From a virus (taxonomy: Duplodnaviria; Heunggongvirae; Uroviricota; Caudoviricetes): 8,915 bases of DNA. Location: the IMG/VR virus record IMGVR_UViG_2778261203_000002. One strand, given 5' to 3'. Made by a program: the position numbers and the translations under genes. A model generated the notes under the pieces. That model saw only the letters and a program-made list of their open reading frames with translations, did no database searches and was not told the origin of the DNA. Within the stretch, counting starts at the first letter, position 1; each line of letters starts with the position of its first letter. This document shows positions 576-4,987 of this stretch, piece by piece.

Positions 576-1175
576 ATGGCGCATATACAACTGGTCAAAC
601 AAACTTCTTCTGGTTTACTTCTCCCGGCGACGCCGGAGAGTTGCGATTTTCTGCATCAAATCAAAATAGGTGAGTGGATACACGCAGACTTTAAGCGTGT
701 GCGTAACTACGCATTCCACAAGCGTTTTTTCAAACTCCTGCAACTGGGATTCGATTACTGGACTCCGGTCGGTGGGGCGATCACGCCTCGCGAACGAGAA
801 CTGCTGTCTGGTTTCGTTGATTACCTGTGCGAATCAGTTGGTCGGGAACACACGCCAGCCCTGAGTGATGCCGCAGAGCAATACCTTAACACCGTTGCGA
901 CTCGTAGAACCCGGGATACGGCGTTGCTAAAGTCGTTTGAGGCTTTCCGCGAGTGGGTAACCATTCAGGCCGGATTTTACACCGAGCATATTTATCCGGA
1001 CGGTAGCCGTGGGCGTCGGGCAAAATCCATCGCTTTTGCGAATATGGACGAAGTCGAGTTTCAGCAGGTTTATAAATCTGTACTGAATGTGCTGTGGAAC
1101 TGGATTCTGTTCCGTAAATTCTCCTCTCAGGAGGAAGTTGAAAATGTGGCCGCACAACTACTGGAGTTTGCGTAA
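576..1175 (+). CDS. Conserved lambdoid nin-region protein (DUF1367-like, YdaW-like by position)
   Basis: 199-aa ORF with ATG at 576 and a protein-like composition. Its TAA stop (1173-1175) overlaps the ATG of the next gene (TAATG), indicating translational coupling. It sits immediately upstream of a YbcO-like gene and a Q-like gene, as in nin regions of E. coli prophages. Family name is from memory of this gene neighbourhood, not from an alignment. Confidence 0.65.
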   Translation: MAHIQLVKQTSSGLLLPATPESCDFLHQIKIGEWIHADFKRVRNYAFHKRFFKLLQLGFDYWTPVGGAITPRERELLSGFVDYLCESVGREHTPALSDAAEQYLNTVATRRTRDTALLKSFEAFREWVTIQAGFYTEHIYPDGSRGRRAKSIAFANMDEVEFQQVYKSVLNVLWNWILFRKFSSQEEVENVAAQLLEFA

Positions 1176-1465
1176 TGGTGAATTTACGTAAAGCGGCTAA
1201 AGGCCAGATGTGCCAGATCAGAATCCCTGGCTACTGCAATCACAATCCCGAAACCTCTGTGCTGGCGCATTACAGGCTGGCGGGGACGTGCGGAACAGCG
1301 ACAAAACCACACGATATGCAGGCGGCGATAGCCTGTAGCTCATGCCACGATCTAATCGACGGGCGGGTAAAAACCAGCGATTACACCAAAGAAGAATTGC
1401 GCCTGATGCATGCTGAAGGGGTTTTTCGCACACAAGAAATCTGGAGAAAGAAAGGTCATTTATGA
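1175..1465 (+). CDS. YbcO-like nin-region protein (DUF1364, putative Cys/His metal-binding nuclease)
   Basis: 96-aa ORF whose translation (MVNLRKAAKGQMCQIRIPGYCNHNPETSVLAHYRLAGTCGTATKPHDMQAAIACSSCHDLIDGR...) closely matches my recollection of E. coli DLP12 YbcO, including the conserved Cys/His spacing. Start overlaps the upstream stop (TAATG); its stop overlaps the next start (ATGA at 1462-1465). Confidence 0.75.
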   Translation: MVNLRKAAKGQMCQIRIPGYCNHNPETSVLAHYRLAGTCGTATKPHDMQAAIACSSCHDLIDGRVKTSDYTKEELRLMHAEGVFRTQEIWRKKGHL

Positions 1466-2004
1466 TTTACCCAACGAATACAGGAAAAAGCGGAGAACAC
1501 CTTCGCCTCACCACGCTGGAAAGTGTCTGGATTCAGGGAAAACTACGTATGTGGGGGCGCTGGTCGTATATTGGCGGTGGCAGGTCAGGGAATATGTTCA
1601 ATCAGTTGTTGGCATCCAAAAAACTGACGAAAACAGCCATTAATGAAGCCCTGCGCAGAATGAAAAAAGCGGGAATAGAGAAAGCTGAGCTGGAAGCGTT
1701 TTTGCGAGAGATGATCAACGGCAAGCAAAAGAGCTGGCTGGCGCATTGTACTGATGCAGAGGCGTTATGTATTGATCGAGTCATAAGTGAGGTGCTGGCA
1801 GAGCATCCAGGATTGATTTGCATTCTCCGGCAACGCTATGAAGGGCGGGGGATGACTAAGCGCAAAATGGCTGAATTGCTAAATGATGCACACCCAGAGT
1901 GGTGTTTTAGCACATGCGAAAAACGGATTGCTAATTGGTTAGCTGTTGCTGAGTATGCCCTATATATTCCCATGCGTGAATCATTTGCTGAGAAAATGGC
2001 TTGA
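1462..2004 (+). CDS. Putative late-gene antiterminator (Q-like)
   Basis: 180-aa ORF, translationally coupled to the upstream gene, occupying the canonical Q position: last gene of the nin module, followed within about 80 bp by a strong intrinsic terminator and then the lysis cassette. It contains Cys pairs (C-x7-C, C-x3-C) compatible with a zinc-binding motif. The Q assignment is by position and general features only; I do not recognise it as lambda Q or phage 82 Q. Confidence 0.55.
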   Translation: MIYPTNTGKSGEHLRLTTLESVWIQGKLRMWGRWSYIGGGRSGNMFNQLLASKKLTKTAINEALRRMKKAGIEKAELEAFLREMINGKQKSWLAHCTDAEALCIDRVISEVLAEHPGLICILRQRYEGRGMTKRKMAELLNDAHPEWCFSTCEKRIANWLAVAEYALYIPMRESFAEKMA

Positions 2005-2084
2005 TTTCTTACGTATAAACTGCTTCAATTTTGCTATGCTTCGCAAAGCTGTATCGCGAGGCGGATTGCAGACATGGACATCGT

Positions 2085-2111
2085 AAAAAAACCGCTTAAT
2101 GCGGTTTTTTT
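2085..2111 (+). terminator. Rho-independent terminator (A-run, 5-bp GC stem ACCGC/GCGGT, loop TTAAT, T-run)
   Basis: Sequence AAAAAAACCGCTTAATGCGGTTTTTTT is seen directly. The stem is flanked by an A-tract upstream and a T-tract downstream, so it could terminate in either direction. It lies just downstream of the Q-like gene, making it a candidate for the Q transcript terminator or tR'. Confidence 0.7.
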
Positions 2112-2132
2112 ACGTCAGGAAAGCAGGGGAGA

Positions 2133-2270
2133 ATGCTGCTAGTTGGGCAACTGGTCTTTCTGCTCCAAATTATAACAGAGACCAGTTATAGTTTCGGTGC
2201 TGTGTTTTTTTTACAATATTGTGATAACACATTGCTGGCGGGAGTTTTGATATTTCTTGGCAGGGGCTGA
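2133..2270 (+). CDS. Hypothetical small hydrophobic protein (45 aa), unverified
   Basis: ATG at 2133 preceded by a purine-rich AGGGGAGA; it translates to MLLVGQLVFLLQIITETSYSFGAVFFLQYCDNTLLAGVLIFLGRG, which has one or two hydrophobic stretches. It lies between two intrinsic terminators. The SD-to-start spacing is short and there is no homology support. Confidence 0.25.
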   Translation: MLLVGQLVFLLQIITETSYSFGAVFFLQYCDNTLLAGVLIFLGRG

Positions 2271-2431
2271 TGATGCGTTATCCTGATGTCGTCAACTCAT
2301 ATAAAATGAGATGAGAGATCATTGCAGGGTGGTTTGTAATTCGCTGTTTAGCGGGACAATATGTTGTCTGATACAAGACACCCGACGCCTCAGATTACTA
2401 TAATAAAGACGAAGCATCCTTTGTATTGACC

Positions 2432-2457
2432 AACCGCCTGTTTAGGCGGTTCTTTTT
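2432..2457 (+). terminator. Rho-independent terminator (7-bp stem AACCGCC/GGCGGTT, loop TGTTTA, then CTTTTTG)
   Basis: Perfect 7-bp inverted repeat followed by a T-run, seen directly. It is the second terminator downstream of the Q-like gene and is an alternative candidate for tR'. Confidence 0.65.
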
Positions 2458-2989
2458 GGGCTGGTTTATTGTATGCCAAATGATTATTAAAAAGGTTGTG
2501 TTAATAACAAAATCCGAAATAATATGCCTGCATATTTTTATCTTGCTTATATTCTGCATATTGTGCATAGCAGGCTCATCCCTGCAATCAAAACTGTATG
2601 ATGAGTATTTTTTGTTTTCCTTTTTTCCAGTCATCTGATGATGACCTGCTTCTTTTTAATCCGGATCGACATCAGTTTTTTAAGATAATTCCTGCGAGTT
2701 ATATGCATAAATACCACAAACTCCGCATTTTATGTGGTTGGGAGTTGCCGGGCGCGCAGTGAGTTTGCTAAGAAAACTCCTGCATGGTGAATCCCCCTGT
2801 GCGGTGGGGTGATACCATTAACCTTTTCTGTCGCCGACAGGTATCACGAACATTTTGTTCACCGGGAGGCACCCGGCACCATGCACTTCAATAGATTCTC
2901 TCCACATTATGGATATTCTTTCAGAATATCCCACGCAGACTTTGTGTAAATGTTAACAAATGTGCGTTTTATTTGATCTGATTCGCTGT

Positions 2990-3019
2990 TTGAGCGTCCA
3001 AAACAACGGTATATATAAT
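2990..3019 (+). promoter_or_regulatory. Putative sigma70 promoter for the lipoprotein cassette (TTGAGC, 18-bp spacer, TATAAT)
   Basis: -35-like TTGAGC at 2990-2995 and a consensus -10 TATAAT at 3014-3019, about 30 bp upstream of the ATG at 3049, which is preceded by a GAGGA Shine-Dalgarno. Pattern match only. Confidence 0.45.
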
Positions 3020-3048
3020 CCTTTACTATATGACATATGTGAGGAAAA

Positions 3049-3477
3049 ATGGGTTTTCGTAGCGCATCAATTCTTACGTTGATTATTAGTGGGATTATTA
3101 TCGGGTGCACTGATGCTGTATCGACAAATTATCATGACCGTACATCATATTACTCCGATAAAGCAATAGAGACACAGTATGTGAGTTCATCTGAACGTAC
3201 TTCTGATGTTAGTGAGGATATCCGTCTGTATGCCCATCAAATCAAGAGCGCCATCGAAAAACAGTTCGGGGATGCGAGTAAGTATTCAGGAAAAGAGTGT
3301 ACACTGAGAATGCATATGGCCCCGAATGGCCTTCTACTGGAGGTTAAAAGAGAAAGTGGAGACCTCGATTTATGTCGTGAAGCGATGAATGCGATAAAGA
3401 ATGCTGATATACCTGCCCCCCCTTCGCCGGAAGTATATAAAGTATTTCAAAATGGGGTGCTGGATTTTAAACCCTGA
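3049..3477 (+). CDS. Lipoprotein with C-terminal TolA domain III-like domain
   Basis: 142-aa ORF with a GAGGA RBS. N-terminus MGFRSASILTLIISGIIIGC has a hydrophobic core and a lipobox (IIGC, Cys20 at nt 3106-3108); Thr at +2 predicts outer-membrane sorting. The C-terminal ~85 residues (YAHQIKSAIEKQFGDASKYSGKECTLRMHMAPNGLLLEVKRESGDLDLCREAMNAIKNADIPAPPSPEVYKVFQNGVLDFKP) align along their whole length with my recollection of the E. coli TolA C-terminal domain, including the two Cys residues and the terminal LDFKP. Identity was not computed. Confidence 0.85.
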   Translation: MGFRSASILTLIISGIIIGCTDAVSTNYHDRTSYYSDKAIETQYVSSSERTSDVSEDIRLYAHQIKSAIEKQFGDASKYSGKECTLRMHMAPNGLLLEVKRESGDLDLCREAMNAIKNADIPAPPSPEVYKVFQNGVLDFKP

Positions 3478-3627
3478 TATTTATTGTTTTGTAATAAACG
3501 GTTTCGGCTTAGGTTTGTTCTGACACAGCTACGGCACTGAGCTAAATTTAGCGGATAGTCAGCTCTGAGCCAGTGGCGGACGTAACAACTACTATTGCTG
3601 AGATTTTAATGGATTGAGGAGCAAGAA

Positions 3628-4023
3628 GTGGGATTAAAGAAAATCGTTATGTTGACTTTTTGGGTCGGTTTTGTTGCGGGATGCACACCTTTACACCCTT
3701 CAGATTGCCACAAAACTACTGCTACAGGTAGTTGCAGTTCAGGACGCTGGGATGATCAGGATGAATGGGGGGCGCAAGCGCGGGGAATCAGAGCTGCAAT
3801 TAATGCCAAACTTGATGAGCCGCATAACTGGAAAGGGAAAAAATGCAGGTTGCATATGGAATTCTCTCAGGATGGCACGGCGTTAAAAATATCTACCAGT
3901 AACGGTGATAAAGCCTATTGCGAAGCGATAAAGTCCGCAGCTCATAAAGCCAAATTTCCGGCCTTCAACAATCCGGAAGTCTACAGAGATTTTCAGAAAT
4001 CTGGCTTTGACATGCGAGGTTAG
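3628..4023 (+). CDS. Lipoprotein, divergent paralogue of the upstream TolA-III-like lipoprotein
   Basis: 131-aa ORF starting at GTG 3628, with GAGGAG 6 nt upstream. Signal peptide MGLKKIVMLTFWVGFVAGC has lipobox VAGC (Cys19, nt 3682-3684) and Thr at +2. The C-terminal region (GKKCRLHMEFSQDGTALKISTSNGDKAYCEAIKSAAHKAKFPAFNNPEVYRDFQ) shares the K-x-C-x-L, D/NG, GD-x-x-x-C and PEVY-x-x-FQ pattern with the upstream paralogue and with TolA domain III. Confidence 0.8.
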   Translation: MGLKKIVMLTFWVGFVAGCTPLHPSDCHKTTATGSCSSGRWDDQDEWGAQARGIRAAINAKLDEPHNWKGKKCRLHMEFSQDGTALKISTSNGDKAYCEAIKSAAHKAKFPAFNNPEVYRDFQKSGFDMRG

Positions 4024-4148
4024 CTCTTCAATTACTATATCTCATTCATAGCAAACTGACAGATTTGATGATGTTCTATATACGAAACCTGTGATGTCAA
4101 GTCTGAGCTAATACAAATAAACATAATATCAGAGAAATACATTTTATT

Positions 4149-4172
4149 AGCTCGCTACGGCGAGCTTTTTAT
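4149..4172 (+). terminator. Rho-independent terminator (7-bp stem AGCTCGC/GCGAGCT, loop TACG, T-run)
   Basis: Perfect inverted repeat followed by TTTTTAT, about 125 bp downstream of the second lipoprotein stop and about 100 bp upstream of the holin start. Confidence 0.7.
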
Positions 4173-4274
4173 ATTGCATCGTCTCCAGCATATATATCAA
4201 TTAAGGCTCTGATTGATGTGTCTGAAAGCCTACACATAATAACTATGCCATCCGTTCCGTGCGGAGGTGAGGCT

Positions 4275-4490
4275 ATGAAATCCATGGACAAAATTTCAAC
4301 AGGCATTGCCTACGGCACCTCCGCAGGCAGTGCTGGCTACTGGTTTTTACAGTTGCTCGATAGAGTAACTCCGTCACAGTGGGCTGCAATCGGTGTGCTG
4401 GGTAGTCTGGTATTTGGCCTGCTGACGTACCTGACAAACCTTTATTTCAAGATTAAAGAAGATAAGCGCAAGGCTGCGAGAGGTGAATAA
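4275..4490 (+). CDS. Phage 21-type class II holin/antiholin (pinholin S21 family), dual-start
   Basis: Translation [71 protein letters not shown] matches phage 21 S as I recall it, with the Met1-Lys2-Ser3-Met4 dual-start motif (antiholin from ATG 4275, holin from ATG 4284). A GGAGGTGA RBS lies at 4264-4271. The track ORF from 4218 is an upstream extension with no support. The TAA stop overlaps the endolysin ATG at 4490. Confidence 0.9.
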
Positions 4491-4987
4491 TGCCTCCATC
4501 ATTACGAAAAGTCGTTGCTGCTGCTATTGGTGGCGGAGCAATTGCTATAGCATCAGTGTTAATCACTGGCCCAAGTGGTAACGATGGTCTGGAAGGTGTC
4601 AGCTACATACCATACAAAGATATTGTTGGTGTATGGACTGTATGTCACGGGCATACAGGAAAAGACATCATGCTCGGTAAAACGTATACCAAAGCAGAAT
4701 GCAAAACACTCTTGAATAAAGACCTTGCCACGGTCGCCAGACAAATTAACCCGTACATCAAAGTCGATATACCGGAAACAACGCGCGGCGCTCTTTACTC
4801 ATTCGTTTACAACGTGGGTGCTGGCAATTTCAGAACATCGACGCTTCTTCGCAAAATAAACCAGGGCGATATCAAAGGCGCATGTGATCAGCTACGTCGC
4901 TGGACATATGCTGGCGGTAAGCAATGGAAAGGTCTCATGACTCGTCGTGAGATTGAGCGTGAAATCTGTTTGTGGGGTCAGCAATGA
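4490..4987 (+). CDS. SAR endolysin (phage 21 R-type lysozyme, glycoside hydrolase family 24)
   Basis: 165-aa ORF. The N-terminal Gly/Ala-rich weakly hydrophobic segment ([20 protein letters not shown]) is typical of a signal-anchor-release domain, followed by a T4-lysozyme-like catalytic region. Near-identical to R21 from memory. Its stop overlaps the Rz start (ATGA at 4984-4987). Confidence 0.92.

Follow-up and report, generated by a model that had tools for sequence, protein, structure and literature searches.

A composite, moron-like segment encoding two predicted outer membrane lipoproteins with a TolA domain III in the late region of a lambdoid Escherichia coli prophage

Here, we examined an 8,915-nucleotide stretch of viral DNA (IMG/VR record IMGVR_UViG_2778261203_000002; referred to below, at its full length, as the window) which, from its open reading frame (ORF) translations and Pfam matches, is the late region of a lambdoid, Rac-like Escherichia coli prophage. 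The system in question is a cassette of two small genes, A and B, whose products carry a lipoprotein signal peptide and a TolA domain III, and which lie between a Q-like antiterminator gene and a P21-type holin gene (Table 1). A sigma-70 promoter-like site precedes A and an intrinsic terminator follows B. Comparison with related loci suggests that the segment containing these genes has the structural signature of a moron, and also that it is put together from two modules which can travel separately.

Table 1. Features of the window, in order of position
Feature	Position	Strand	Basis or remark
DUF1367 gene	576-1175		
YbcO-family nuclease	1175-1465		
Q-like antiterminator gene, DUF1133	1462-2004	+	Pfam and PHROG 753
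tR'-like intrinsic terminator	2076-2100	+	72-96 bp after the Q-like stop codon
STnc100-family prophage small RNA (sRNA) element	2752-2938	+	Rfam RF02076, 86.6 bits (gathering score 47), E 5e-18
Variable (moron-like) segment with both lipoprotein genes	2893-4235	+	Homology breaks, copy invariance, G+C
Sigma-70 promoter-like site TTGAGC-18-TATAAT	2990-3019	+	Consensus scan; putative start near 3025-3028
Lipoprotein A, 142 aa	3049-3477	+	Signal peptide with lipobox, linker, TolA domain III
A-B spacer	3478-3627	+	No terminator; recombination joint at 5' end
Lipoprotein B, 131 aa from GTG 3628	3628-4023	+	Lipobox VAGC, TolA domain III
Intrinsic terminator	4149-4176	+	7-bp stem, UACG loop, then U tract UUUUUAUAUU
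Conserved holin leader	4236-4274	+	
P21-type holin gene	4275-4490	+	Pfam Phage_holin_2_1, E 2e-35
Lysozyme	4490-4987		
Rz/Rz1, then trkG, then ParB-like gene	downstream of lysozyme		

Both ORFs encode lipoproteins by sequence, as a first-pass annotation of this DNA had stated. The translations contain the lipoboxes IIGC (within SGIIIGC, followed by TD) in A and VAGC (within VGFVAGC, followed by TP) in B; each fits the pattern [LVI][ASTVI][GAS]C and has no Asp at +2, and the lipobox Cys is kept in three further alleles of A (A2, A3 and A4) and in homologs of B. Sorting to the outer membrane by the +2 residue is an established rule, and A and B are predicted from the lipobox and this residue to be outer membrane lipoproteins. 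The GTG start of B has GAGGAG 6 nt upstream and opens a normal lipoprotein signal peptide; RefSeq starts the gene at ATG 3649 (124 aa), which drops the Lys-Lys n-region. Beyond the signal peptides, the Pfam TolA C-terminal family (PF06519, cutoff 25 bits) matches A with E 2.4e-23 (82.6 bits, profile positions 4-96 of 96) and B with E 1.3e-14 (54.6 bits, positions 10-92). Residues 55-142 of A align without a gap to residues 334-421 of E. coli TolA (E 5e-28 against TolA in the PDB) and keep both TolA cysteines and the C-terminal LDFKP strand, in which mutations of TolA D418 and K420 lead to a tol phenotype (PMC4339652). B matches TolA domain III in the PDB with E 5e-9 and ~30% identity, again with the cysteines kept. 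Neither protein is a TolA, because both lack the membrane anchor and the helical domain; the architecture of TolA proper (membrane anchor, helical domain II and domain III; models NF007065 and TIGR02794) is thus not found. Matches to the full-length models are confined to the C-terminal ~95 profile positions (293-386 of 387), the NF007065 score is 107.8 bits against a cutoff of 213, and A passes the TIGR02794 score (75.6 against 59.45) via the C-terminal domain alone.

Both genes are real and under purifying selection, with a dN/dS of 0.40 for A against A2 and of 0.08-0.12 for B against its plasmid and chromosomal homologs. The annotation of A in RefSeq/PGAP is inconsistent: the gene is entered either as an intact 'tolA' CDS or as a 'tolA pseudogene missing N-terminus' (in strain HS30-1 and others). 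The latter label ("tolA, incomplete, missing N-terminus") would suit the view that A is decaying debris, a pseudogene fragment of tolA flanked by meaningless signals, and we consider this very improbable. A is a full 142-aa ORF with a start codon, a Shine-Dalgarno sequence, a signal peptide and a lipobox, it is annotated as an intact CDS in other RefSeq genomes, it is nearly invariant in hundreds of genomes, and its four alleles keep both frame and lipobox at the dN/dS given above. Nor is it a recent copy of E. coli tolA. Derivation from the chromosomal gene was considered and rejected, since the 82% nucleotide matches proved to be the prophage paralog A2, and its only nucleotide-level relatives are other prophage alleles.

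The edges of the variable segment are marked by breaks in homology. On the left, a cassette-free STnc100 locus is homologous up to 2892; on the right, homology with two cassette-free relatives (L006 and L007) resumes at 4236-4241, 39 bp before the holin ATG. These two relatives share the Q of locus L004 and lack the whole variable block containing the cassette, and in L006 the left-hand homology stops ~104 bp past Q. Across 156 copies of the cassette, 2761-2858 is densely variable, and hardly any variation is seen from ~2900 to 4236. The promoter-like site and the terminator both fall inside the DNA that is present or absent, and this segment has a G+C content of 38-45%, compared with 47-55% in the flanking genes (a modest difference). 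Presence or absence at the same position, a terminator of its own and a deviating base composition are among the marks by which a moron is recognized, and these three were found here.

The cassette is common. In 769 of 5426 complete E. coli genomes (~14%), 80% or more of 2740-4290 was found at ~99-100% identity, and the cassette also occurs in more than 120 IMG/VR prophage contigs. Its place is always directly upstream of the holin gene, whichever of at least four upstream contexts precedes it; one isolated coliphage, mEp460_ev081, has it too, between a different Q (273 aa) and the holin. Among 160 IMG/VR loci, the stretch from promoter to terminator is kept intact in four such contexts. Gene A is confined to E. 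coli and Shigella (a scan of GTDB species representatives returned only Shigella flexneri), and a distant blastn search of E. coli genomes found the segment 2885-3125, which holds the promoter-like site and the signal peptide, only inside the cassette. The B family (78-89% identity) is more widely spread. Relatives are found on about 600 plasmids, including pO157 (L005, EDL933) and an IncI1/B/O conjugative plasmid (L179) in which the B-family gene directly follows the relaxase gene, and they form stand-alone, single-gene chromosomal islands in Enterobacter, Citrobacter and Serratia (L168, L171 and L174), the Serratia copy adjoining GmrSD/HEPN defence genes. A more distant TolA-domain gene (35% identity) was seen on ~310 further plasmids, Klebsiella appearing in every one of the matches listed.

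The terminator after gene B is structurally convincing. A strong intrinsic terminator had been described at this point, about 100 bp before the holin gene, and it is indeed present: a hairpin (AGCTCGC-TACG-GCGAGCT, 4149-4166) with five G-C pairs in its stem is followed by TTTTTATATT, and the U tract ends at 4175-4176, 99 bp before the ATG at 4275. This is the arrangement of a rho-independent terminator, with a GC-rich stem-loop directly before a U-rich tract. The predicted fold has a free energy of -13.0 kcal/mol (z = -4.4), none of 200 shuffles folds as well, and by the scan the signal functions on the + strand only. An exact-pattern scan of IMG/VR found it only together with the cassette, and it is identical in locus L184, which carries allele A4. 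A search for the origin of the 3' segment with its terminator gave no phage or E. coli match outside the cassette. A riboswitch-like alternative, with a competing helix at 4105-4116/4142-4153, was considered and rejected (-7.9 against -13.0 kcal/mol).

The promoter-like site named in the first-pass annotation was likewise found before gene A. Its description as near consensus is fair for the -10 element (3014-3019), which is perfect, and generous for the -35 element (2990-2995) and the 18-nt spacer. The site matches the consensus at 10 of 12 positions and has no TG extension; 30 bp separate its end from the ATG at 3049, and a GAGG Shine-Dalgarno sequence lies at 3041-3044, 4 nt before that ATG. 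The + strand of the 8.9-kb window contains only three sites of this quality. On balance, the promoter appears plausible but statistically modest.

How the late transcript of the prophage would meet these signals can be judged from the region behind Q. The product of the DUF1133 gene matches its Pfam family with E 2.5e-107 (the Phage_antitermQ match is weak) and PHROG 753, "anti-termination protein Q-like," with E 2e-79, so that the name Q given to it earlier was reasonable. The tR'-like hairpin behind it is flanked by A and U runs and is predicted to fold at -20.3 kcal/mol (z -4.1). Locus L004 encodes an unrelated Q of 273 aa and has the same geometry, with a terminator at 1874-1893 inside ~100 bp conserved with cassette-free relatives. 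The arrangement after Q therefore has the look of the classical Q-pR'-tR' layout, and a late promoter downstream of the cassette seems unlikely, because only 39 conserved bases precede the holin. With a Q-like gene and a tR'-like terminator upstream, late transcription would therefore have to cross the cassette terminator. Such read-through presumably occurs in mEp460_ev081, since this viable phage carries the cassette at the same position, and on anatomical grounds the bypass of the terminator by Q appears well founded. As a separate observation, 2005-2110 resembles a pR'/tR' unit and has weak isrK-like Rfam matches on both strands (E 0.3-0.7).

Taken together, these features suggest a scheme of transcription whose chance of being right, as a whole, we put at about even. 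The variable segment would be a composite cargo insert (a moron) in the late operon, between the Q-like antiterminator gene and the holin gene. The sigma-70 promoter would give low, Q-independent transcription of A, and the transcript would run on into B, there being no terminator between the two (folding of the spacer gave no hairpin followed by a U run), and would end at the hairpin and U tract (4149-4175), leaving the intact holin, endolysin and spanin genes silent. In intact relatives, a Q-modified polymerase starting just after the Q gene would pass both the tR'-like and the cassette terminators, and the resulting late transcript would express the cassette together with the lysis genes late in infection.

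Several findings weigh against this scheme, the first group of which concerns the promoter. It is a consensus match only, with an 18-nt spacer and a -35 element correct at four of six positions, and its chance expectation is ~4%: when the 110 bp that separate STnc100 from the ATG were shuffled 5000 times with dinucleotides preserved, 4.0% of the shuffles contained an equally good site. Nor is the window as a whole enriched in promoter-like sites (25, against an expected 19.7 +/- 4.5). In the sister allele A3 (94% identical), the -10 reads TGTAAT, with loss of the A at -11, and in this comparison substitutions are as dense in the promoter as in the gene (6.7 and 6.5 per 100 bp). The region upstream of A2 and A4 differs wholly and has no equivalent site; the best one there matches at 9 of 12 positions and lies 130 bp upstream. 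No RNA-seq, transcription-start or reporter data for a carrier strain were found in the literature searched. Footprinting of the promoter and terminator across the 156 copies (54 haplotypes) was uninformative, almost all variation being singletons. The promoter thus does not look selected, and the alleles take away any comparative support for it. They do not, however, imply that the site in the window is inactive, because in E. coli activity is common among sites that combine a perfect TATAAT with TTGA at 18 nt.

A second point against the scheme is that the cassette consists of two modules, the promoter traveling with A and the terminator with B. Gene A exists in at least four alleles (A, A2, A3 and A4) with two different signal peptides and upstream regions, and alignment of the regions upstream of A and A2 gave no convincing homology. 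A3 (91% amino acid identity) shares the upstream region of A (2672-3478, 94%) but, in L181, has neither B nor the terminator behind it. For A4, both the upstream region and the signal peptide are of the A2 type, with the joint at 3103, and the coding region is diverged by 12.7%. In L184, the B module behind it matches from 3478 onward with one difference only, at 4214, up to the end of the match at 4393 in the holin gene. The stop codon of A (3478) is therefore a recombination joint in two independent comparisons, which makes the promoter part of the A module and places the terminator in that of B. By the same evidence, the cassette could be two independent units, in which the region upstream of A drives A, a promoter within the spacer drives B, only B has a terminator, and the bracketing of the pair is an accident of juxtaposition. 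The exact joint at the A stop codon, the occurrence of A alone in L181, the identical B module behind a diverged A allele with a different upstream region, and the monocistronic state of B homologs elsewhere all speak for this, and a second promoter, for B, may indeed lie in the spacer, where a promoter-like site (CTGACA-17-TAAATT, 3520-3548) overlaps a 28-nt stretch (3514-3541) common to a plasmid copy of B. That site is weak, however (9 of 12; when a 110-bp region is shuffled, 20% of the shuffles reach this score); with no terminator between the genes, transcription of A would continue into B; and no prophage with B was seen that lacked an A allele. We regard two separate units as rather improbable.

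The 5' side of the cassette is a third concern. The copy of STnc100 upstream lacks the usual terminal GC hairpin and U run: in the Rfam alignment, the consensus GC hairpin plus UUU is replaced by GGAUAUUC/GAAUAUCC, followed by CACGCAG, and every cassette-bearing locus examined has at this point an AU-rich hairpin without a U run. Cassette-free relatives (L003, L178 and L181) carry one to four tandem STnc100 copies with proper terminators. Transcription entering STnc100 may therefore read into gene A, and the 5' side is perhaps not closed. The cassette had been called self-contained and typical of moron architecture, and both descriptions survive in part. The two signals do lie within the variable segment, and the presence or absence of that segment, its terminator and its lower G+C are moron-like; on the other side stand the STnc100 copy without a terminator, the composite of two modules, and a promoter seen as a consensus match.

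Finally, the contrast between lysogen and induction applies only to the intact relatives, since the prophage in the window is a remnant that carries neither immunity nor integration genes. Strain HS30-1 contains this DNA as a prophage remnant flanked by hokD and by uspF/ompN, in which integrase, repressor and replication genes are absent. (In the same strain, outside the window, mcr-1.1 with ISApl1 lies ~8 kb upstream of the remnant.) If the promoter is active, the terminator would be the last thing that keeps a constitutive promoter from driving the intact holin, endolysin and spanin genes of a cryptic prophage.

It is also conceivable that the pair is a passenger of the late operon. A and B would then have no working promoter of their own, and the Q-dependent late transcript of lytic growth would be their only source. 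A TolA domain III tethered to the outer membrane would titrate TolB/Pal, loosen the outer membrane and aid lysis or the release of vesicles, and the hairpin at 4149 would serve as a further terminator bypassed by Q, which keeps stray upstream transcription from the holin. In keeping with this, the cassette has the orientation of the late operon, follows the Q/tR' unit and always adjoins the holin on its upstream side; the modest excess of the promoter match over chance, the broken -10 of A3 and the possible read-in from STnc100 would likewise agree with it. Periplasmic overproduction of TolA domain III reportedly gives a leaky tol phenotype (Levengood-Freyermuth et al., J Bacteriol, 1993), which would also fit. 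Nevertheless, the ORFs are kept intact and under purifying selection in a remnant which lacks immunity and replication genes and is unlikely to run a lytic program, relatives of B stand alone on chromosomes and plasmids with no lysis genes nearby, and a -10 and -35 of this kind are, as noted, commonly active. We therefore think it unlikely that the pair is purely a late-operon passenger.

A number of other observations were made in and around the cassette. Some ~1 kb without credible ORFs separates the DUF1133 gene from the lipoprotein ORFs. Within it, a second 10/12 site (AAGACA-18-TATAAT, 2375-2404, + strand) is followed within ~30 nt by a terminator-like hairpin (2432-2451); the pair has no Rfam match and may represent a very short transcript or chance pairing. 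The motif TTACTATAT occurs at 3023-3036, in the 5' leader of gene A, again at 4032-4045, just past the stop codon of B, and also upstream of the otherwise unrelated A2 leader (L178, 1385-1394). The product of the holin gene (Pfam P21 holin S, 71 aa) bears the dual-start motif of phage 21 (MKSMDK...), and a GTG at 4218 opens a longer ORF (4218-4490, +) that overlaps the conserved holin leader. An inverted repeat of 20 nt near the edges of the segment (2906-2925/4221-4240, 16 of 20 complementary) was considered as a pair of transposon-like ends and rejected: target duplication is absent, three other chance pairs are at least as good, and the repeat is probably due to chance. Insertion sequences (IS) of ~1.2 and ~1.3 kb interrupt some copies (L014 and L134) at 3548-3551 and 4233-4241, one inside a palindrome (GCTAAATTTAGC) in the A-B spacer and the other exactly at the right-hand junction of the cassette, and several complete genomes carry IS1, IS2, IS3 or IS5 inside the wider region 2000-4500.

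What the two lipoproteins might do is suggested by the domain that they carry. Known ligands of TolA domain III include colicin A (PMC3365938) and colicin N and the filamentous-phage protein g3p (PMC4339652). Tethered at the inner face of the outer membrane, with neither a TolQR-coupled anchor nor a long helical domain, A and B could bind such ligands, namely the translocation domains of colicins, g3p and the N terminus of TolB, and as decoys would render the host tolerant to TolA-dependent colicins or filamentous phages. We tentatively propose, as a possibility that we would not yet call probable, that lipid-anchored, stand-alone TolA domain III proteins (the alleles of A together with the B family) form an unrecognized class of decoys on mobile elements, giving tolerance to TolA-dependent colicins and to pilus-specific filamentous phages such as Ff and If1. 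If so, this would explain why conjugative plasmids place a B-family gene directly after the relaxase gene. The presence of B relatives on conjugative plasmids and beside GmrSD/HEPN defence genes would be in line with such a role. Three results weigh on the other side: PADLOC-DB v2 gave no defense-model match for A or B at E <= 0.01, PHROG 5772 is labeled "unknown function," and a search of the literature for prophage or plasmid TolA-like lipoproteins, decoys and morons yielded nothing relevant.

The architecture of the locus is of a known kind, a textbook moron layout, and by itself teaches little. It is the cargo that could matter. About one complete E. coli genome in seven has the cassette, relatives of B are found on hundreds of plasmids, including the O157 virulence plasmid, and A is misleadingly annotated as "TolA" or as a tolA pseudogene. 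If the two proteins are TolA decoys, they would offer a simple and widespread route to tolerance of colicins and filamentous phages, with consequences for competition in the gut.

In its layout, the cassette resembles the morons of lambdoid phages as defined in HK97 and HK022 (the subject, reportedly, of a 2012 review by Cumby, Davidson and Maxwell, "The moron comes of age"), which are likewise extra genes present or absent between related phages, placed among co-oriented late-operon genes, of lower G+C, and bracketed by a promoter-like site before and an intrinsic terminator after. Unlike them, it comprises two separately traveling modules, with a putative promoter that is not conserved in sister alleles. 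It also occupies the same slot, from Q/pR'/tR' to the holin, as the Q-to-S cargo of Stx and other lambdoid prophages (stx, nanS-p, tRNAs, nmpC and the STnc100/AsxR sRNAs), and in its relatives it has the same neighbors (tRNA-Ile/Arg, STnc100 and AsxR). However, in place of a toxin, an esterase or a porin, the slot here contains two lipoproteins with a TolA domain III.

In their proposed role, A and B recall Cor (of phi80, N15 and HK022) and Llp (of T5), outer membrane lipoproteins of prophage origin that block entry via FhuA. Like these, they are small, phage-encoded, predicted outer membrane lipoproteins proposed to block the uptake of competitors via a host import system; unlike these, to which they have no sequence relationship, their proposed target is the set of TolA ligands rather than FhuA, a role drawn from sequence. 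With the host TolA they share domain III itself (PDB 1S62, 3QDP, 1TOL and 2X9A, the last of which we take to be If1 g3p with TolA domain III). The host protein, however, has an N-terminal TolQR-coupled anchor and a helical domain II, and A and B could not transduce energy, because they are lipid anchored and lack that anchor. Perhaps the nearest likeness is to the tolerance conferred by filamentous phages themselves: periplasmic g3p is said to occupy TolA and thereby make cells tolerant to colicins (Boeke, Model and Zinder, 1982). There too, import would be blocked by titration of the interaction between TolA domain III and its ligand, but the cassette would be the mirror image, the mobile element supplying a spare TolA domain rather than a TolA ligand.

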